From: Ostreococcus lucimarinus
Taxonomy: Eukaryota
Assembly: GCA_000092065.1 (NCBI GenBank)
Contig: CP000599.1
DNA length: 64,000 nt
Strand: one strand, 5' to 3'
The notes beneath the pieces are model-generated. The model saw nothing but the letters and a program-made list of their open reading frames with translations, was not told the DNA's origin and did no database searches. The position numbers and the translations under genes are program-made. Each line of letters opens with the position of its first letter. Within the stretch, counting starts at the first letter, position 1. Of the stretch, positions 3,095-47,415 are shown piece after piece.

Positions 3095-4471
3095 TTGAGG
3101 GTTGAAGTGGGATTACACTGTTTACGCATACGCGCTCGGGTGACTGACGAAGACGCGAATCGCGCGCGCGCAGCTGTTGGTGATGACGTCGATATCAACT
3201 TTATGCTGACGAACACCTTCTTGGTGTTCTTCATGCAAGCCGGCTTCGCGATGTTGTGCGCCGGATCCGTGCGAAGCAAGAACACGAAGAACATTTTGAT
3301 TAAAAACGTGCTCGACGCGTGCGTCGGCGCCATCGCGTGGTTCTTGTTTGGCTACGGTTTCGCGTTCGGGGCGACGACCGGAAAGAAGGAAAACGCGTTC
3401 ATCGGTTCCGGTAACTTCGCGATGAAGGACGTCACCACTGCGAGCGAATTGGCGATGTACTTGTTCCAGTGGTCGTTCTCCGCTGCGGCGACGACGATCG
3501 TGTCTGGCTCTGTCGCCGAACGCACCAAGTTCGAGGCGTACCTCGGCTACTCTTTCTTCCTCACCGCCTTCGTGTACCCGGTCGTCGTGCACTGGACCTG
3601 GAGTGGTGGCGCGGGCTGGTTGGGCACTGGCTACACTTTGGGCGACAAGGTCGCTGACGTTGGCATGCACGACTTCGCCGGCTCTGGCGTCGTCCACATG
3701 GTTGGTGGTTTCGCTGGTTTGATGGGCGCCATGATCGTCGGTCCGCGCACCGGTCGCTTTGCTTCCGATGGTCGCGTGAACCCGATGCCGGGCCACTCCG
3801 CCCCGCTCGTCGTTCTCGGCACCTTCGTCCTCTGGCTCGGCTGGTACGGCTTCAACCCGGGCTCCGCGGGCGGCGTCGTCGACAACGCTGAAACTGTGGC
3901 CCGCTGTGCCATCACCACGACGCTCTCCGCCGCCGCTGGTGGTGTGACAGCCATGCTCTTGAACTACAAGTTGTACCACGTCTGGGACTTGATCGCCGTG
4001 TGCAACGGTGTTCTCGCGGGTCTCGTCTCCATCACCGCCGGTTGCGCCGTCACGGAACCGTGGGCCGCCCTCGTCTGCGGTTCGCTCGGCGCCCTCGTCA
4101 TTCACTTCTCCTCCAAGCTCTTGCTCAAGTTCCAAATCGACGATCCGCTCGAAGCGGCGCCGATGCACGGCTTCTGCGGCGCCTTCGGCGTTCTCTGGGT
4201 CGGTTTCATGGCCAAGAAGGAATACGCCGAGGCTCAGGGTGCCAGAGCTGGTGCGTTTTACGAAGGTGGCGGCAAGCAACTCGGCGCGCAAATCGTCGGT
4301 ATCCTCGTCATCATCGCGTGGACGTGCGGCACCATTGGTCCCTTCTTCATGTTGATGAAGAAGTTCAACTTGCTCCGCACCACCGTCGAAGAAGAGACGC
4401 TCGGCTTGGACGAATCCAAGCACGGCGGCAAGGCGTACGCGCTGGAACTCGTCGCTCCGGAACCAGCGTAA
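3095..4471 (+). CDS. AMT1: ammonium transporter, AMT1 subfamily (Amt/MEP/Rh)
   Basis: The segment DINFMLTNTFLVFFMQAGFAMLCAGSVRSKNTKNILIKNVLDACVGAIAWFLFGYGFAFG matches the AMT1 signature D.T..L.SA.LVF.MQ.GFAML.AG.VR.KNT.NI...N.LD...G...Y.LFG..FAFG. Eleven hydrophobic segments follow. An in-frame ATG lies at 3203; the true start may be 3095, 3203 or an upstream exon. Confidence 0.85.
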   Translation: MRVEVGLHCLRIRARVTDEDANRARAAVGDDVDINFMLTNTFLVFFMQAGFAMLCAGSVRSKNTKNILIKNVLDACVGAIAWFLFGYGFAFGATTGKKENAFIGSGNFAMKDVTTASELAMYLFQWSFSAAATTIVSGSVAERTKFEAYLGYSFFLTAFVYPVVVHWTWSGGAGWLGTGYTLGDKVADVGMHDFAGSGVVHMVGGFAGLMGAMIVGPRTGRFASDGRVNPMPGHSAPLVVLGTFVLWLGWYGFNPGSAGGVVDNAETVARCAITTTLSAAAGGVTAMLLNYKLYHVWDLIAVCNGVLAGLVSITAGCAVTEPWAALVCGSLGALVIHFSSKLLLKFQIDDPLEAAPMHGFCGAFGVLWVGFMAKKEYAEAQGARAGAFYEGGGKQLGAQIVGILVIIAWTCGTIGPFFMLMKKFNLLRTTVEEETLGLDESKHGGKAYALELVAPEPA

Positions 4472-4670: not shown

Positions 4671-5798
4671 TCACCACGCGAAACGTTCGATCACGTGCGT
4701 CGGCGTCGCATCGGGATGCTCTCGCAGAACGTCCTCGAGCGCTCGAAGCTTCAACTCCGCGGCGTGAACGCCCACTCCTCGCACGAACACCGTGTCCACG
4801 CCCGCGCGCGCGCCGCCGGCGACGTCGTGCGCCAACGAGTCTCCGACGGCGACGACGCGCGATTTATCCAAATCGCCGCCGGCGGCTTTGATTTCCCACA
4901 GCAACTCTTCGTAAATGATGGACGACGGCTTCCCCATCAAACACACGTACGCCTCGCCGTCCTCGCCCGCGTGCGTGGCGTTGAATTTATCGACGTAATA
5001 TCTCGCGAGCGTCCCCGGCATGGCGACGAGCGTCTCGCCCGAAACCGTCACGAAATCCGGATTCGCGACGCACAGAGGCACCTTGGCCGCCGCCGCCCGT
5101 TCGACGAGCGCCCGCATCGTCTCCTCGTCCACGGTCTCGCACGGCTTCCCATCGCCGCGCCCGATCGCCTCCGTCCCGTGCGCCAACACGAAATCCACGC
5201 GTTCGATCGCGTTCGCGTCGCCAGCGTCGTCGGCCGACGAAACGTCCACGATTTCGATTCGCGCGTTCGTCTCCTCGCCCAGCGTAATCGCGCCGCGAGC
5301 GCTCCACGTCAAATGCGCCGCTCTCGCTCTCCTCCCCTCCGATCTCGCCCCATCGATCGCGCGTCGCAAGCGACGAAAATTATCTCCCATCGCCGTCGTC
5401 TTTTCCGTTCTCCAATCGTCCGCGTCGCGCGTCGCGAACCGCCGCGCGACTTCGCCGCTCGTCATCGCGCCGCGAAACGCCGTCGCCGAGAACCCCATCG
5501 ACGCCAACCGCGCGATCGTGCCCTCTCGACCGCGCGAGGAGTTCGACACGATGTATATCCGCTTCCCCATCGCGGCGAGCGCGTCGACGCACTCGACGGC
5601 GCCGTCGTACGGCGTCGAACCGTCGTGCAGTAGACCAAACTGGTCCAGCAGCCAAACGTCGTAGTCGTCCGCGAATCGCGACACGCGCGTCGCGCGCGTC
5701 GACGTCATCGCCGCGGAATCGCGCGAGCGACGCCGTCGCGAGCGCGCGGACGACGCGCGCGCGGTGGCGACGCGAGAGAGATTCGACGCCGTCGCCAT
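4671..5798 (-). CDS. HAD-superfamily hydrolase (subfamily IIA-like phosphatase)
   Basis: HAD motif II (RIYIVSNSSR) and motif IV (VAVGDSLAHDVAGGARAGVDTVFV) are present. Motif I is noncanonical (LLDQFGLLHDG, i.e. DxFG rather than DxDG). ATG at 5796-5798 on the minus strand. The N-terminus is S/R-rich and looks like a targeting peptide. Confidence 0.6.
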   Translation of the reverse strand: MATASNLSRVATARASSARSRRRRSRDSAAMTSTRATRVSRFADDYDVWLLDQFGLLHDGSTPYDGAVECVDALAAMGKRIYIVSNSSRGREGTIARLASMGFSATAFRGAMTSGEVARRFATRDADDWRTEKTTAMGDNFRRLRRAIDGARSEGRRARAAHLTWSARGAITLGEETNARIEIVDVSSADDAGDANAIERVDFVLAHGTEAIGRGDGKPCETVDEETMRALVERAAAAKVPLCVANPDFVTVSGETLVAMPGTLARYYVDKFNATHAGEDGEAYVCLMGKPSSIIYEELLWEIKAAGGDLDKSRVVAVGDSLAHDVAGGARAGVDTVFVRGVGVHAAELKLRALEDVLREHPDATPTHVIERFAW

Positions 5799-6031: not shown

Positions 6032-6487
6032 CTAATCCCTCAACAACTCGTCGTTTTCAGCGTCCACGATGCACGCCTCGACCTCGTCGACGTCGCCTCG
6101 CATCACCGCCGTCATGCAGTCCTCGAAGACGCGCTCGGCGCTCAGCTCCTTGAGCTTCGCCGTCCAAAACGCGTCGCCCTTCACCTCCGGTCGTCGTCGC
6201 AGCGTCTCGATCGTCGCCGTCGCGCTGACGCCGTGTTCATCGAAACCGTCCTCGCACTCGAGCAGGCACCGCTCGAGCTCGGCTTCGTCGCCGGACGCCA
6301 CCGCGTCGAGGCACGAGCGCAGCACGCGCTCGCTCGCGCGCGCCTCGGTCTCCGTCTCCGCGTCGCGATTCGCGGCGTCCGACGACGCGGCGCGGCGCGA
6401 CGCGCGGTCGCGCGTGTCGCGTTTCGCCCGCGCGGCGCGCGCGCGAATCGACGGCGCGAGCGCGACGCGAGCGCTTCGGGACATCAT
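6032..6487 (-). CDS. hypothetical small acidic protein with an internally duplicated ~27-aa Cys-containing motif
   Basis: 151-aa ORF with an R/S-rich N-terminus followed by two related segments: LRSCLDAVASGDEAELERCLLECED and FEDCMTAVMRGDVDEVEACIVDAEND. The opposite-strand ORFs here are Ser/Arg-rich junk. Weak call. Confidence 0.3.
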   Translation of the reverse strand: MMSRSARVALAPSIRARAARAKRDTRDRASRRAASSDAANRDAETETEARASERVLRSCLDAVASGDEAELERCLLECEDGFDEHGVSATATIETLRRRPEVKGDAFWTAKLKELSAERVFEDCMTAVMRGDVDEVEACIVDAENDELLRD

Positions 6488-6726
6488 CGCGATCGCCGCG
6501 CGGTCGCGCGATCGGCGGGTTTCGCGGCGTCGATTCCGCGCGCGGCGTCGCGATGCGGGACGTCGCGCGCGCGGCGTGCGTCGATGCGTTTAAACCGCGA
6601 GCGGACGCGCGCGAGCGGGGCGAATCGGCGCGAGGCGAAGAGTGCGGCGAAGAGAGACGAAGGGAGACGCGATCGGGGCGCATCGTGCTGAGTCATCCAA
6701 CTGTCGATTAAATTATTCGCGGCGAG

Positions 6727-9700
6727 CTACCGCGCGCGTAATTCGTTAATTTTAAGCGTGAGATAGGCGGTGACGTCGTCGGAGGCCGGTGGCATGGACT
6801 CGGCGATGTAGACCAAGGTGGCGATCTCGCGCGCGGTGGCGCCGGCGCCGTCTAAGACGGCGTCGAAGACGCGCTCGGCGGCGGCCAAGGATACGGCGCC
6901 GGATTTCTTCACCGAGGCGTCCGCGATCGAGAGAGCCTTGTCGTCGTATTTCGCGCCGTCGATGACGCGGTATTGCTTTGAGGCGGATTTTGTGAGACCT
7001 GATTCGATCTCTTCGCGTCTGGCGTCGATTCGCGGTTGTAAATACGTCGCCGCGGCGTCGCTGAGGACGTAGGCGTATCGACCGCCGCCGCCGGCGAGCA
7101 CCAGCGCCAAAGTCTCGAGCTCGATCTTCGTGATTCCGGCGCCGTCGAAGACGCTTTCGTAAATTTTTTCCGCGCCGGCGCGATCGATTTCGCCTCTTTC
7201 CGCCATGAAAGTGTCCGCGAGGCACAGAGCGGCGTTGTCGTACCTGACGCCGCCGACGGTGCGATAGAATCCTTGAGGCGCTTTACGCTTTTGCGCGCGC
7301 TGTTGCTGCGTCAAAGCGTTCTTTTCCGTCAAACGTGCGTCGCGCAGTCGGGAACGGAGCTCCGCAGCGAGACCCGTGGCGTCGAGACCGCGCGCTGCGC
7401 ACTCGGCGATGAGTTCGTCGCGCTTCATTTTGCTCAACGCGGTGAGCGAGGACGGTTCGAAGACGATCGCCGGGCGTTCCTCACTCGCGGCGTCAACACC
7501 CGGCGAGGAGGTTTCAGTGCTGACGATTACGGGCGTCGGCGTCGATGGTGCCGGCACCTGCGCTCCGCTCGCGCGTTCAGCCGCGGTTTCGGCTTTCGCC
7601 GCGCGTTTGGCCAGAGCCTCCGTCTTGGCTTCGGCTTCCTTGATCGCAAGCGTCGCCGATGAAAGCTTGGCTTCGAGCTCTTCCAACTGCGTCGCGAATC
7701 GAGACTCGGCTTCCGCTAAATCGCTCGCCGCACGCTCAGCGATCGTCTGCGCCTCGACCGCAAATTCTTCTTGGGCTCGCTCGCGCGCAACATCGGCGTC
7801 GTCCTCGGCAGCGGCGAGCCGCGCCTCCATGCGTGCCAAATCTGCTCGCAATTCTCGCTCGACGTCGTCATTCAACGCGCTACTCGATGCCTCAACCTTT
7901 GCTCGCGCTTCCGTTAAGTTGCGCGTCAACTCGTCGCGCTCGGCGGCGATTGCCGCGAGCGCCGCCGCAGCCGCTTCCTGTTCGCTTCTGAGCTCGCGCG
8001 CCAGTTCGCTCGCGCGATCGTCTGCTTCGGCTAGCTTTCGCTCCAACTCATCGCTCATCGAACGCAGGCGCGTCGCCTCGGAAGCTTCAGCCCTGGTGCG
8101 CTCGATTTCATCTCTCAACTCCTCCTGCTCGAGTTCAGCGATTCGAAGTTTCTCTCGCCATGCGTTTTCTGCGCGTCGCGCGTCGTCGCGCGCGGCTTCG
8201 AGTTCAGAAGCCTCGACGAGACTCGCCGTCTTCGCTTTGAGGGCTTCAAAGCGCGCGTTGGCTTCGCTCGCACGGCGCTCGGCGTCGGTGAGTTGACCTT
8301 TTAAGCTCTCGAATGCCTCCGCCGCAGACGCGGCGGAGAGTTCGCGCGCTGATCCTTCTTCGACGAGGCGCTCTATGTCGCTCACAAGGCCGTCAGATTT
8401 GCTCGTTTCCTCGACCAATCGCGCGTCGACTCGGGACTTTTCTGCACGTAAGCGCTTGATTTCGACTTCTAGTGCGGTGAAGCGCTCCTCCACTTGCGCG
8501 ACGGCTGTTCTCGCCGCCGCTACGTTTTGTTCGCTCTGCGACATGGCGTCGTCGATGGATTTCTTGGACTCGGCGTACGCACGATCGACCTCGGACTTTT
8601 CGGCAACTAATTCATCGTACTTTGCTCGAATTTCGGCAATTCGCGCTTCAGATGAATCCACCGCCGTCGCAAGCTTTGCTTCGCTCACGCGTAAAGCCTC
8701 CGCAATGCGCTCGCGTTCTTTTTCAGACGCAACGGCGTTTTCTGCCGCCTTTGCTTCCAATTCGGCGAGAGCATTACGCACGTCATTTCGCTCTTCAACC
8801 AGGCGGTCGATCTCACCTTGTCGACGCAATGCTTCGTTTGCCGCGGCGGCGTTGATAGCGTCCTTTTCAGCGCTAGAAGCCGATTTCAAACTCGAGATTT
8901 CACTCGCATACGTGCGTGCACTCTCGGAAGCGGCTTTCTCCGCCTTGTTGAGCTCGTCGGTTTTAGCTTGCAATTGCCCGCGCAAAGTTTCGCACTCGGC
9001 TCGCGATGCATCCAGCGCCGTAGAATCTACCGCATTTGCGAGTTCACGCTCAAACGCACTCTTTTCCTCAGTCAATCTCGCGACGGTTTCTTGTAACTTT
9101 GCCATATCGCTTAACCGCGCGTTTTGCTCGCCGTCGAGTCGCGACTGTGCCGCCGCCTTTTCTTCTTGAACTCGCGCGAGCGCTTGACGCAATTCGAGCG
9201 CTTGCGATTCCGCGCGAGCTTCGGCACTCTTGAGCGTCTCCAGCGCAGATTCCTTCTCTGCGCGAAGTCGCTCAATCTCGCTCTTCATTTGCTCCTTCTC
9301 CGCTCGGCTCGACTCGTTGAGCGAACGCTCCATCTGAGCAACGGAGTCTCGCATCTCTTGCAGTTGTGCTTGCGCTTGTTTAGTTTCCGCGGAAGCGGCG
9401 TCAAGGGCTCGCGACATTTTGAGCGTCGCGTACGATTGCTCGTTCGCGCTTCTCGTTTCGAGTTTCGCCTCCACCTTGGCGAGTGCCGCGCGCGCGGTCG
9501 CGGCGTCTTCCATCGCTACTTCGGCTTCGCGCTTGGCGTCGTAGAGCTCTCGCGCAGTTTTGTCTTCATCGAGCAAAGTCGCAAATTGCTTCTCCAATCT
9601 TGCTGAATTTTCAATAGCCTTCTTCGCGTCAGCTTCGAGATTCTTGATCCGCCGCTCTTCGTTGGCGTATTGATGCTCGAGTTCGCGACGACGTTGATCC

Positions 9701-40671: not shown

Positions 40672-41739
<1,068 letters not shown>

Positions 41740-41810
41740 TCACGAGGCGTGATTTATCGATATTTGCGCGCGCGCGATGGACGCGCGCGAGGCGAAGGCG
41801 CTCGCGGCGC

Positions 41811-42460
41811 TCACGCGGAGGGCGCCAACGCGAGGACGCCGCACGCCAAGCGCTGCGCTCGCGTAAACCGAAGCGATCGATCGTCCGTCAGTCGAAAGCC
41901 GCGTGCGCGAAAAACGAAACCCTAAACGCGCGTCGAAATCGCGTCGCGTCGAGTCGCGATCGTGGAAATCGCGTCGAAATCGCGTCGTCGACGCACCGCT
42001 CCGGCGTTGCCCGTCGTCTTCGACGTCTTGCCCTGGGTGCCGATCTCAGAGCTATCGCCCTTGCCGAGATCGTCCTCGAGCTCGTGAATCACGAACGCGC
42101 GTCCGATGATCGAGTTCGCCCCGCTCAGCGGAATCTGCGAGTCCTCGATGACGAAGTCGCACCCGCCCGCGGTGGCCTCGACGTTGCCGAGGTCGCCCGC
42201 GTGTCGCGTCGCGTCCGTCGGCGCGCCGTGATCCATCTTGTTCGGGTTAAAGTGCGGTCCCGTGGACATGCACCCGTTCGTCGTATCGCCGAACTCGTGA
42301 ATGTGCAGGCCGTGCTTGCCCGGCGCGAGTCCGGTGATGGAGCCGACGACCTTCGTCGGCGCGTCGCCGCTCTGGCTCAGCTTGAGCACGCCCGACACCC
42401 CCGCGGTGCCCGTGAGCACGCACACCGCCTGCTTTTGCTCCGCCGTCACCGCGACCGCGC
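41811..42460 (-). CDS. Cu/Zn superoxide dismutase; 3' exons complement(41811..41852) and complement(41997..~42455); 5' exon(s) not resolved
   Basis: [19 protein letters not shown]...[23 protein letters not shown]...RHAGDLGNV...[18 protein letters not shown]...TGNAGA is followed by a GTGCGT donor at 41996. The CAG acceptor at 41855-41853 gives the terminal exon [13 protein letters not shown], which completes the canonical GNAG.RLACGVIG end. The track ORF 41922..43901 (659 aa) is a composite artefact. Confidence 0.7.
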
Positions 42461-42759
42461 GAGGGCGATGCGCGGACGTCTTCGTCGACCTGCGATCGCG
42501 CGCGCCGGCGTTCGCGCGCGCGTCAGTCGTCGCGTTCGTCGCGGGTTTAGGTTCGTCGCGTCGTCGCGCGTCGTCGCGCAGCGCGTCGCTCGAGCGCACC
42601 GCGCGCACGCGCACTTGGCGCCGCAGAGGTGGGTCTTGGAGGCGAGCGTCGCCGATCGGGAGAGCGTCTGCATGGCGCGGCGTCGGGCGTCGTGTGTCGG
42701 CGATGACGTGGCGAGGGCGCGAACGCGCCCTCGTCGCCATCATTCGAGGGCCTTTATAT

Positions 42760-42900
42760 ACGTATATTTCGTAGAAATATACTTTATATTCGGAAACATG
42801 TCGTATGGGTATTGTGTCTGTGGTTATAATTGGTAGTATCCGAATATTCGGACACACGGCGTATGCGTATTGTGTATATACACATAATTGGTAAAAGTCC
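42760..42900. promoter_or_regulatory. AT-rich bidirectional promoter island between divergent Cu/Zn-SOD and CCS genes; contains a ~60-bp tandem duplication
   Basis: The units tattcggaaacatgtcgtatgggtattgtgtctgtggttataattggtagtatccga and tattcggacacacggcgtatgcgtattgtgtatatacacataattggtaaaagtccga form a local AT-rich island in ~70% GC surroundings. Confidence 0.45.
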
Positions 42901-43070
42901 GAGCGCGCCGACCGTCGGCCGCGCGCCGCACGTCGCGACGCGCGATCGCGCGACGCCCGATCGCGTCCCGCGCGACGCCCGCGGACCTTCTCGACGCCTC
43001 GACCCGATCTTAACCGCCCGCGACCCGCGCGCGCGACACCCGAGGCGTCACGTCGACGACGACGCGCGTC

Positions 43071-44033
43071 ATGATTCCGTCGACGCCGCGCCTTCGCGCC
43101 GCCGCGCCGCGTCGCGTCGTCGACCGCGCGTCGCGATCGCGAACGCGGTCGCGATGCCGACGCGCGCTCGAACGCGCCGACGCGCGGACGAAAGACCTCG
43201 AGCGGGCGTTGGAATTCATGGTGGAGATGCGGTGCGGAGGGTGCGCGGCTAAGGTGACGACGGCGTGCGAGGCGCTCGCGGGCACGACGCGCGTCGACGC
43301 GTCGCTCGGGACGAACACGGTGACGGTGATCACGCGCGATGCGGAGCGAACGGTCAGGGAGGCGATCGAGAGCGCCGGGTATAAGGCGCGATTGATCGGG
43401 CAGGGGCGCGCGGAGCGAAGCGCCGAAGACGACGACGATTTCGGCGAGGCGCTGGCGGAGGCGCTGGGCACGGACGTGCGGACGCTGCGACAGAGCCTGG
43501 CGGCGGTGGCGGAGTTTAAGGGGAAGGCGTACGGGCACGGTGAGGCGCGAGGGACGGTGCGGCTGGTGCAGGTGAGCGAGGAGACGATATTGGCGGAGGC
43601 GGCGCTGGACGGGTTGAGTCCGGGGGCGCACGCGATTCGCGTGCACGAATACGGGGATTTGACGCGCGGGATGGATTCGATCGGGGACGTGTACGGGGGG
43701 GAGGGAGGGGCGGGGATGATCGGGATCGTCGTCGCGGACGAGAATGGGTCGGCGACGATGCCGTCGACGATGTTGAGCTCGGAGCTCAAGGCGTGGGACG
43801 TCATCGGTCGAAGCGTCGCCGTGTACGCCGCCGCGGACGGCGATACGACCGGCGCGGTGTGCGCCGTGCTCGCTCGAAGCGCGGGCGTGGGGGCGAATCA
43901 TAAAAAGTTGTGCCAGTGCGATGGGACGATCATCTGGGAGGCGGGCGAAGATTTCTTGCCCCGCGCGGTGGACGAATGCGACGCCGCGAGACCGCTGCTC
44001 GGCAAAGGAATCACCACCGCTCGGCGCGGGTGA
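43071..44033 (+). CDS. CCS: copper chaperone for superoxide dismutase (CCS)
   Basis: Three-domain CCS layout: an Atx1-like HMA domain with the [10 protein letters not shown] metal-binding MxCxxC; a SOD1-like domain ([25 protein letters not shown]); and a C-terminal CxC motif (KKLCQCDG). ATG at 43071. Confidence 0.75.
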
Positions 44034-44121
44034 GAATAGCGCGCGTGTAATGATGATTGCGATGATTGATTGATTGATGAATTGATGCTTAAAAAGGACG
44101 TTATCGTTGAGATTGTTATAT

Positions 44122-46803
44122 TCACTTGATCTTGATGAGCGAAGGGAGCTTGACGCCGTCGATGGCGCGTTTCGCCTCGGCCCACGTCTTCGTCGTTCGC
44201 GGCGGCGGAGTCGGCGGCGGCGGCGGCGCGAAAGGTCTCGGCCGCGGTATCACCATCGTCGACTTCTTCGGCGGCGCCGCGGGCACGCTGGACGATGGCT
44301 GGTTTTCTTCGTGCGTCTTGCTCGACGGCGGCGCCGCGAGCGCCGGCGAATCGTTCGTCTTCAACGCCGGGAATTCCTTCAATCGCGACTCTCGATCGAC
44401 GGCGCTTTCGGCGTCGCTCGAGGGGGTCGCGGACTCGGACGTCGATTGCGATGCGACTTTCGGCTTGGGTGGAAAATCCGGTAGCGCGGACAGCCCCGTC
44501 GGCGGCGGAGGCGGAGGCGGAGGCGGAGGCGGCGCGGCGGCGGCGACGGCGGTCGATCTCGGCGCCGGGATGCGCGCCGGCGGCTTTCCACTCGGCAACG
44601 GCGGCGGATTCGGTGGCAGCGGCGGTGGATTCGGCATCGTCGCGACGGTTGGTCTTCGAGGCGCATCCATTTCCTTCGCGAACGTCGGTCGCGGCGGCGT
44701 GTTGGGCTTCCTTCGCGATCGCGCCGCCGTCCACTCGCCGCCCGAATCCGAATTCGCCGCGTCTTCGAGCGTCGGTTCGGGGGTCTTCGATCGCGGCGTC
44801 GTCGGCGCTTCGGGTTCGTCCTCGGCGTCGTCAGCGACGGTGATTTCATCGCGCTCGACGTCGCGCGCGACTTTCGTCAGCGCTCGCTTCGCCTTGGACG
44901 ACGAAGATTTCCGTTTCTTCTTCGAAGACGCGCCGCCGGCGGATCTCTTAGAGTTGGCGTCGCCGCCGCGGAGAACATCGTCGTCATCTTCGAACGCCTT
45001 GAGCGCAGCTTCCAAACGCGCGTCGTCCAGTGCTTTAACGTGCTCTTTGACCGCACCGCTCACGACTTTCACGAACGTCGCGCACTTTGCGAGTTCGATG
45101 CCGTACGCCAAGTGCGCGCCCTCAAGATTGAGCGCTCGAACGACGCGGTCGACGACGCCGTCGAGGGCGGTGGATTTGTACCTGTCCATCACGGGTTGGA
45201 TTCTTCGATGCAAACCTTCGACATCGTAATTTGTCGACGTCGCGCCGGCGTTCGTGGAGGAAGCGCCGCCGCTCGCGGCGGAAGTGATGGCTCGAAACGA
45301 GCGCTTTAAATCCCGCATGACGTCTCGCAGGATGACTTTGACGTCGAGCGCACGATCGGCGTACGCCTTGTCGACAACGCGCGACGAATCACCGTCACAC
45401 GAGTTCAACGCTCGCGTCGCCAGCACGCATTCTTTGGCGTGGCGCTCGATCTCTTTCGCGCTCGGTGCCGCGACGGCGAAAGAATTCCTCGCGTGATCCA
45501 AATGCTTATTCAGCACGATTTCCAGCGCCTTGGAATCCCCGGGCGGCGTCACGTGCTTGTAACACATTTCGTTCTCGCGAAGATAAAACCGCGTGCGCTT
45601 CTCGGCCAGACGGAATTCTTCCACACCCAGCTCGAGCGCCGCGGTGACGTCGCGAAATTCGCACCAGGCGCCGAGCGCGCGCGTCAAGAGCTCACGTCGC
45701 TGAATCGCGAGCAAATCCGCGTTGTCGTCGCGCACGAGCTCGGCTAGCTCAAGCATCGCTCGTTCGGCGTCGCGCTGCTCGGCGAGCCAAGACTTGACGA
45801 GGTTATGAACGCTTTCAGAAGTTTCGTCGTCCATGCGCCTGACGACGTCGAGATCGTGCGCTTGTTTAGCTTCATCCAATCCGCCCGAGGCGTCGACGAG
45901 CGGCGGCGCGGGCGCGTCGACGCTCGTGTCGAACTCGCGATCACCGAGCGTCGCCCGCGAATCGCGACGTTTGCTTCGAATCGTCGCGAATCGATGTAAA
46001 CACTCGAATCCTCGGCGCACCCAACGCTCGACGTCGACGTCGTCGCGTAAACCGATGGAATCCTCGCCGCGACGCGCGTAATCGCGCGCGTCTTCGTCTT
46101 TGACCAAATCCTCGTTCGCGCGACGCGGACGTCGCGCGTCGTCGTCGTCGTCGTCGCCACCGCCGACCGCGTCGACGACCGCACCGCCGCTTTCATCGAC
46201 CGCGAGCGCGCGCAACGTCTCCATCGCCGCCGCGAGCGCGTCCGAAGCGTCCGTCCCGCGTCGCCCCGTCGCCGTCGTCTGCGCGCCTCGACGCCCCCCC
46301 GACCCCGACCCCGACCGTCCCATCGTCCCCATCGACGCCTCCGCGCCCACCGCGCGTTCGATCGCGCGTTCGATCGCGCGCACCGACGCCGCCGCGCGTC
46401 TCCCGCGCGCGCCCACCCGTCTCGCCACCGCGCGCGCGTCCTCCTCCGCGTCTCCCTCCCCGTCCACCAGCATCGCCGCGAACGCCCCCCGCGCCGCGTC
46501 ATCGTCCCGCAGCATCGCTCGCAGCGTTCGATCGAGCGCGCGTCGCGCCCTCGATCGCGCGTCGTCGTCGTCGCGCGCCGTCGCGCGCGCCATCGCGGAA
46601 GACGAACCGTCCCTTCGATCGCCGTCCCTTCGCGCGCGTTCGTTCGACGCGCGTCGTCCGTCCTCGCGCGGTCGACGCGCGCCGCGCGCGCGTCCGTCGT
46701 CGTCGTCGCGCGCCGCGTCCGTCGCGCGCCCTCGATCGCGCGTCGCGCGTCGCGATGTCGCGCGTCGTCGTCGCGCGTTGACCCGCGCGTTGACCGTCGC
46801 CAT
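44122..46803 (-). CDS. hypothetical large protein with C-terminal proline-rich (poly-Pro, FH1-like) region
   Basis: 893-aa ORF. The middle region is helical and non-repetitive. The C-terminal 250 aa carry [34 protein letters not shown] and [12 protein letters not shown] tracts. No family assigned. Confidence 0.45.
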
Positions 46804-46804
46804 C

Positions 46805-46985
46805 GTCGACGTCGCCCTATATATAATACGACGCGAAACCTCATATAATCCTCATCACGACACCCAACAGTCACACACACGTATGTCTCTCATCATTACT
46901 AAGTACCTTACGACTATATATACATATACCGTATGTCCGATATATGTTTATAGGTATCCGTGTACGTATATTAGTAAAATAACGT
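46805..46985. promoter_or_regulatory. AT-rich bidirectional promoter island between the divergent 44122-46803(-) gene and AGPase(+)
   Basis: ~180 bp at roughly 35-40% GC containing tatatata and gtatgt motifs and the 13-mer ccgtatgtccgat, which is also found in the 61360-61460 island. Confidence 0.4.
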
Positions 46986-47415
46986 CGAGCATTCGACCGA
47001 CGTTCCTGAGCCAGTCGTTACGCGCGCCATTTTCCGCCGCGTCGCGAATCGCCGATGCGCGCCGCGTCCCTCGCGCAGCGCGCCGCGCTCGCGCCTCGCC
47101 GCGTCGACGCCGAGCAAAGGTGCGCGCGCGACGCCCGCGCGACCGCGACGCCCGATCGACCGCGAACGCGAACGCGCGAGACGATCGCGTCGCGACGGAC
47201 GGATCTCGACGAGACGCGCGACGGATCGACGCGAACAGCGCGCGACGACGCGCGCGAGCCGCGAGAGACGCCGGATTCAAACGCGTCTCGCGCGTCGTCG
47301 GCGTCGCGCGACGGATCGACGCGCGCGCGGCGCGAGGGCGGCTCGGGACGCGCGACGCGGGACGGAGGATAAGACGAGACGCGAGAGAGACGACGAGCGG
47401 ACGCGAGACTGACGG

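Follow-up and report, generated by a model that had tools for sequence, protein, structure and literature searches.

A head-to-head gene pair encoding a chloroplast-type Cu/Zn superoxide dismutase and its copper chaperone, conserved in Mamiellales, with a short spacer as candidate shared regulatory region

Analysis of a 64,000-nucleotide stretch of Ostreococcus lucimarinus DNA (contig CP000599.1 of assembly GCA_000092065.1; the whole stretch is referred to as the window, and positions are counted from its first letter) revealed the gene for a Cu/Zn superoxide dismutase (SOD) of the chloroplast (CSD2) type on the minus strand at 41811..42673 and, on the plus strand at 43071..44033, the gene for CCS, the copper chaperone for SOD. 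The two genes are arranged head to head, and the spacer of 397 bp between their start codons (42674..43070) constitutes a candidate shared, bidirectional regulatory region. An earlier note on this DNA, made from the letters alone, had read the genes in this orientation with starts ~400-600 bp apart; Pfam matches to both genes and stop codons at the two ends of the interval (41811-41813 on the minus strand for SOD, 44031-44033 on the plus strand for CCS) confirm the arrangement, and the distance agrees with that reading, being 397 bp, or 544 bp if CCS started at the alternative Met50.

Regarding the SOD gene, three exons on the minus strand (42673-42600, 42489-41997 and 41852-41811) encode a product of 202 amino acids. 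Exon 1, which begins with the ATG at 42673, encodes the presequence and is linked to the SOD domain, lying in a different frame, by removal of intron 1 (42490..42599, 110 nt, GTGCGC...CAG); this recovers the N-terminus kept in P0189, P0197, P0241 and P0210, orthologues of 205-211 amino acids from transcripts or curated genomes. Similarly, splicing of intron 2 (41853..41996, 144 nt, GTGCGT...CAG), which precedes the last 13 codons, recovers the canonical TGNAGARLACGV C-terminus, and the transcript-derived orthologue P0189 aligns with the spliced protein from end to end. A start at ATG 42743 (the 273-amino-acid read-through open reading frame (ORF), with P0174 and the fragments of 155-175 amino acids in L001-L003 from prokaryote-style callers) was rejected because of the length of these orthologues and because their N-terminal peptide, which carries the motif HxCxxxCxC, is specified in the window by codons beginning at ATG 42673, in a frame other than that of the SOD-domain ORF. 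A 659-amino-acid minus-strand ORF (41922-43901), spanning the spacer and running antisense to CCS, was dismissed as an artefact of high GC content. Exon 1 is at 42600-42673 and no SOD exon lies beyond CCS; a first exon there is what the earlier note had named as speaking against a head-to-head pair.

The minus-strand ORF matches Pfam Sod_Cu with 2.3e-40, and all copper and zinc ligand motifs (including VIHE) and the disulfide cysteines (GCMSTGPH, RLACGV) are legible in the spliced protein, to which human SOD1 was also aligned. Its nearest named homologues are plant chloroplastic isoforms, and the nearest single-domain solved structures are those of the chloroplast SODs of spinach and tomato (1SRD, 3HOG). 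A 44-residue extension rich in Ser, Thr, Ala and Arg precedes the mature-type AVCVLTG.

Several further features of the SOD gene and its product were observed. Relative to human SOD1, the electrostatic loop contains a 7-residue insertion (residues ~172-178, EIGTQGK; ~42020-42040), which is common to all Mamiellales orthologues retrieved. Residues 15-23 of the presequence, encoded in exon 1 (42600-42673), read HLCGAKCAC and represent the conserved HxCxxxCxC, which is carried by Ostreococcus-like sequences (L016, L024/P0189), Bathycoccus (L008, L064, P0197), Mantoniella (P0241) and P0210; Micromonas-type loci have HVC(T/S)SKC(T/A)H in its place, all three cysteine codons of the motif read CGC (Arg) instead of TGC in strain L014, and no exon with the motif was found in O. 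tauri. It is unusual for a presumed transit peptide to retain a cysteine-rich motif, and this one might bind metal. Intron 2 contains ~5 tandem or near-tandem copies of CGCGTCGAAAT (41929-41987); as a dispersed introner-like family this repeat was rejected, since its 6 matches in the window compare with ~4 expected by chance, which is not significant. A second Cu/Zn SOD gene on chromosome 1 of O. tauri, ostta01g04820, which encodes two Sod_Cu domains (PMC4855317), has no counterpart in the window.

The CCS gene consists of a single exon encoding 320 amino acids, in which an Arg/Ser-rich presequence (residues 1-45) is followed by an HMA domain (residues 49-105; Pfam HMA 3.7e-11) with the motif MRCGGC at 43227-43244, an SOD-like domain (residues 160-258; Pfam Sod_Cu 7.8e-12) and the CxC motif of domain III, CQC (residues 281-283; 43911-43919), so that the three-domain architecture claimed in the earlier note is present in full. 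M53, C55, C58, C281, Q282 and C283 are invariant in 12 Mamiellales CCS relatives, and a broader comparison of 13 CCS sequences shows no variation at the two C-terminal cysteines. The best solved structures for this protein are those of human CCS (6FP6, 6FON) and yeast CCS (5U9M, 1JK9). Compared with human CCS, the SOD-like domain has lost the loop that bears the zinc and bridging ligands, and Tyr stands in place of the last copper-ligand His (AVYAAAD, as against VIHELED in human CCS); given the deletion of this metal-site loop, the protein is a chaperone rather than another SOD. It is 99% identical to marine-metagenome proteins named copper chaperone for superoxide dismutase by JGI and, over the aligned stretches, 99% identical to the partial NCBI model P0003 of O. 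lucimarinus CCE9901; exact-sequence look-ups of the 320-amino-acid protein and of P0003 returned no record. The likely start of CCS is Met1 at 43071, which is favoured because the HMA domain has its first beta-strand (LEFMVEM) upstream of Met50, because strain alignments are invariant from the ATG at 43071 onwards with indels just ahead of it, and because 320-amino-acid JGI models exist. The predicted role of the protein is copper delivery to apo-SOD together with oxidation of its disulfide, and the Arg/Ser/Ala-rich N-terminal extensions of both SOD and CCS are consistent with import into the plastid.

Conservation of the pair was investigated in 93 related loci obtained from look-ups and one metagenome scan, 88 of which were scored together, with L091 and L093 fetched later. 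In 62 of the 88 loci, SOD was found upstream of CCS and on the other strand, at 700-1070 bp from core to core. A match to SOD was missing from the other 26, of which 25 have too little upstream DNA, and the remaining one, L007, has a Pfam Sod_Cu gene call at 6430-6687. L091 contains a head-to-head pair with start codons 268 bp apart and a CCS that is 89% identical to XP_002508667 of Micromonas commoda RCC299, and the pair is also present in the Micromonas-type locus L093. Lineages with the pair thus comprise the species of the window, four more Ostreococcus-like metagenome groups, O. tauri, a Bathycoccus type and a Micromonas type. The identity of CCS in the Ostreococcus-like groups and O. tauri is 59-68%, and that of SOD 85-94%. 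The Bathycoccus-type loci have 47-49% GC and an SOD exon 1 that is a near-match to P0197 (Bathycoccus prasinos according to NCBI), and the Micromonas-type loci are of high GC. The spacers from ATG to ATG measure ~85-400 bp in the six other lineages, where both starts could be placed. The synteny check that the earlier note had proposed for green-algal relatives therefore shows the pair kept across three genera, being retained across Ostreococcus-like lineages, Bathycoccus and Micromonas in every related locus with enough upstream DNA.

With ~8,000 genes per genome, the probability of finding two given genes directly adjacent and head to head by chance is estimated at <1e-4. Beyond the Mamiellales, no CCS was found within 10 kb of the chloroplastic SOD locus of Physcomitrium, nor any SOD-CCS linkage within 10 kb at the outgroup locus L089 of a compact eukaryote, and we take the two genes to be unlinked in Arabidopsis, yeast and human. 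L089 was the sole usable outgroup locus from a protein search with a profile of non-Mamiellales CCS, in which Mamiellales sequences again predominated; L090 was too short to be used. The absence of linkage in a moss and in another eukaryote speaks against the idea that the pair is a relic of duplication, the SOD-like domain of CCS having arisen by local inverted duplication of the adjacent SOD gene. Membership of CCS domain II in the Sod_Cu family would agree with such an origin, but the CCS of Mamiellales is orthologous to the ancient CCS of eukaryotes, with the three-domain layout and the tail ARSAGVG.N.K..C.CDGT..WE found in human, yeast and diverse eukaryotic CCS, and its domain II, lacking the whole metal-site loop, matches Sod_Cu far less strongly than the adjacent SOD does (7.8e-12 against 2.3e-40). 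Because the architecture of CCS is ancient and its domain II degenerate, a local duplication is a very unlikely origin of the pair.

The sole exception to the tight pair is O. tauri, in which the divergent orientation is kept with ~3.6 kb between the gene cores. Here ~2.8 kb of lineage-specific DNA (L004, CAID01000020.2, 1987-4775), with annotations of a 67-amino-acid Gly-rich ORF and a 150-amino-acid protein with weak RING matches, lies between SOD and CCS, and a tblastx comparison of this insert with all other loci gave no matches. Regarding the neighbouring genes, the pair is flanked by PUB-Med31 on one side and WD40 on the other in Micromonas, and by NDUFV2(-GlyT) and a large protein of unknown family in Ostreococcus and Bathycoccus; as the flanks differ between these groups, SOD-CCS is the only adjacency common to both.

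These observations enter into the main rival explanation, passive retention, according to which SOD and CCS became neighbours once in the Mamiellales ancestor and have remained together as a small target for rearrangement, with independent promoters and without meaningful co-regulation. The separation of ~3.6 kb that O. tauri tolerates is in keeping with this explanation, as is the frequency of head-to-head neighbours in compact genomes, which makes the orientation in itself unremarkable. It accounts less well for an adjacency that has outlived the exchange of both flanks, or for the identity of the partners, the only known job of CCS being to activate its neighbour SOD. Passive retention is in our judgement somewhat unlikely, though to be taken seriously.

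Regarding the spacer itself, the two genes diverge with <1 kb between their start codons, the intervening DNA has no protein or RNA-family support, and an Rfam scan of 41500-44300 gave no matches. The AT-rich island of the earlier note is present at ~42744..42901, with TATA-like runs and a lowest GC of 35% over 120 bp in a window of 64% GC. It contains two 58-bp tandem units (42786-42843 and 42844-42901), of which 42786-42835 and 42844-42893 match with a period of 58 bp and 80% identity, and the palindrome TCCGAATATTCGGA (42839-42852) lies at their junction. The tandem duplication of ~60 bp described in the earlier note is therefore real, but neither the duplication nor the island is the conserved part of the spacer, both being limited to one species. 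The window has 15 AT islands, among them the tail-to-tail spacer 3' of CCS (44018-44175), and AT-richness thus marks intergenic DNA generally. The island and both repeat units are kept among strains of the same species, and nothing similar was found in any other lineage compared or elsewhere in the window, so that the repeat unit was rejected as a dispersed or conserved element.

Strain L014 carries a 124-bp insertion between the two 58-bp units (L014 5628-5753; between window positions 42838 and 42839), and the CCS-proximal unit is the best-conserved segment in this strain (98%, against 89-92% elsewhere). L014 is of the same species and diverges slightly, and its unit 1 is nearer to unit 2 than is unit 1 of the window. 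The island and its duplication would thus be species-specific spacer DNA, probably the source of TATA-like core promoter sequences and not a conserved regulatory part.

The only spacer element conserved across lineages is a TGACGT core, which is contained in the window in ATGACGTGG on the plus strand at 42703..42711, 31 bp upstream of the SOD ATG. TGACGT was present in the spacer at 16 of 16 loci inspected and, when one ATG-to-ATG spacer was taken from each of seven lineages, in all seven, with the heptamer ACGTCAC/GTGACGT in six. Sharing of any heptamer reached five spacers just once in 200 mononucleotide shuffles, and in 2000 dinucleotide-preserving shuffle sets TGACGT never occurred in more than four of the seven spacers. 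The joint probability of TGACGT calculated from the locus-wide density of the motif was 1.5e-5, or ~0.03 after correction for 2080 hexamers. A search for k-mers shared over the whole core-to-core interval was discarded, having returned nothing beyond low-complexity, GC-rich words located in the coding presequences, and it was the restriction to ATG-to-ATG spacers that gave ACGTCAC/TGACGT. The core occurs in the form TGACGTCA in O. tauri and four other Ostreococcus-like lineages, as GTGACGTG in Micromonas and as GTGACGTTT or ACGTCAC in Bathycoccus. It is no general feature of AT islands, since inspection of the site list placed TGACGT within 150 bp of only ~3-4 of the 15 islands of the window, about the background density. 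Retention of the core in every spacer is a further point against passive retention of the pair, to be set beside the finding that the remainder of the spacer cannot be aligned from one lineage to another and that its AT island is species-specific, both of which favour that explanation.

An additional box, TTATCCA, was observed 0-9 bp upstream of GTGACGTG in Micromonas-type spacers (L063 ~3695-3725, L091 ~7875-7900, L093 ~1885-1915), and its reverse form, GGATAAG, directly follows TGACGTCAC in L033 (~5769-5790); TTATCCA and the TGACGT-core site may form a composite element.

Sites with an ACGT core are classic bZIP targets, and the TGACGT core would therefore indicate light, diel or redox control and not copper control of the SPL7/CRR1 type. 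An O. tauri gene annotated CSD2 has a strong diel rhythm and belongs with clusters for photoprotection, oxidative-stress defence and DNA repair around midday (PMC2850359). This rhythm fits control by light or the clock, without singling out an element.

Regarding copper control, the earlier note had pointed to several GTAC cores in the island and suggested a copper-response element of the SPL7/CRR1 type, which would make the spacer a copper-responsive bidirectional promoter. Neither point held: no GTAC site was found between 41414 and 43528, an interval that takes in all of the SOD gene and the spacer together with the initial 450 bp of CCS, and the six orthologous spacers have 0-1 GTAC each. 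The land-plant precedent, in which copper deficiency acts via SPL7 and miR398 to bring down CSD1, CSD2 and CCS in concert, would lend itself to such a promoter, as would the over-representation of GTAC in the whole window (203 sites against 117 expected from shuffles), within which the 2.1-kb stretch at 41414-43528 is GTAC-free. The GTAC-based mechanism is nevertheless refuted in this window by the absence of its sites, and a copper-responsive promoter of this type is given only a slim chance as an account of the pair.

The explanation that we consider the probable one, with a fair measure of doubt, is that of a conserved head-to-head pair of ordinary nuclear genes, for a chloroplast-type Cu/Zn SOD and for CCS, in which the short spacer serves as a shared regulatory region. 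CCS would be the chaperone that inserts copper into the neighbouring SOD and forms its disulfide. The short spacer, with divergent starts <1 kb apart, would act as a single regulatory region, or bidirectional promoter, which would allow joint production of enzyme and chaperone, in matched amounts, as proteins destined for the plastid. The likeliest element of shared control would be the conserved TGACGT core, as TGACGTCA in most Ostreococcus-like lineages and GTGACGTG in Micromonas, acting as a bZIP-type ACGT-core site. Co-regulation from a shared promoter region is, on the evidence of the sequences compared, plausible.

Several observations weigh against this explanation. The separation of ~3.6 kb in O. 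tauri means that a tight shared spacer is dispensable in at least one species, and in O. tauri TGACGTCA is found on the SOD side only. Very short spacers are rarely broken by rearrangement, and conservation of the pair may thus be partly passive. In addition, TGACGT is short and was picked after the fact, and its corrected significance is modest (~0.03 on the density estimate).

A more far-reaching proposal starts from the same gene pair and regards it as a selected two-gene unit in Mamiellales, in which a bZIP-type factor bound to TGACGT(C/G) would activate the two genes jointly under light, diel or redox control and physical linkage would replace coordination by miR398, and in which the HxCxxxCx(C/H) of the SOD presequence would be a copper-handling or CCS-docking site. 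We regard this proposal, taken as a whole, as doubtful, if conceivable.

The surroundings of the pair in the window include, on the minus strand at 40672-41592, a gene of the NDUFV2 family whose product is a 2Fe-2S thioredoxin-like protein of mitochondrial type, and a perfect hexanucleotide microsatellite, (CGAAGC)x7, at 41653-41694 between the start of this gene and the 3' end of SOD. On the other side, a gene for an 893-amino-acid protein without a Pfam match lies on the minus strand at 44122-46803. A strongly AT-rich island (42% GC) at 46802-47034 coincides with the start of this gene (ATG 46803), contains GTAC at 46903 and 46962, and is a possible second divergent promoter.

The same two proteins make up the CSD2/CCS module of land plants (Arabidopsis CSD2 At2g28190 and CCS At1g12520): the SOD of the window is nearest to plant chloroplastic SODs, and the land-plant CCS and that of the window both consist of an HMA domain, an SOD-like domain and CxC with a presequence. 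In plants the enzyme and CCS are co-regulated via SPL7 and miR398. The genes are adjacent in the window but unlinked in land plants, as seen at the chloroplastic SOD locus of Physcomitrium, and CSD2 and CCS of Arabidopsis are presumably on different chromosomes. Land-plant coordination is post-transcriptional and relies on one microRNA, whereas that of the window would stem from physical linkage, with a spacer devoid of GTAC cores.

Classical bidirectional promoters, such as those of histone H2A-H2B and yeast GAL1-GAL10, resemble the locus of the window in the divergence of their genes, in a spacer well below 1 kb, in functionally dependent partners and in pairing that extends across genera. 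Unlike these, the window pairs an enzyme with a dedicated metallochaperone, and bidirectional activity is here a prediction from the genes. The literature searched gave no description of an enzyme and its dedicated metallochaperone as a bidirectional pair, and we know of none; nor did it contain a prior report of SOD and CCS as a divergent pair, in agreement with the earlier note. Public genomes carry annotations of both genes, and their adjacency has thus been visible and yet apparently unremarked.

A similar logic, the linkage of an enzyme gene with a gene for its metallation or maturation so that the two are co-expressed, is found in bacterial operons such as sodN-sodX for Ni-SOD and urease with UreDEFG. 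These are co-directional and polycistronic, in contrast to the window, where the two are divergent, separately transcribed eukaryotic genes and that of SOD has two introns.

SOD-CCS joins the functionally coupled head-to-head gene pairs, a class already well known. The understanding of how SOD or CCS work is unchanged by this finding. It does provide a clean, conserved eukaryotic case in which the gene of an enzyme is physically coupled to that of its dedicated metallochaperone, an arrangement that bacterial operons typically show and eukaryotes rarely do. Ostreococcus is transformable, and the spacer of <400 bp offers a small test system for matched bidirectional expression and for copper-enzyme maturation in abundant marine picoplankton, with O. 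tauri, whose two genes have become separated, as a natural control.

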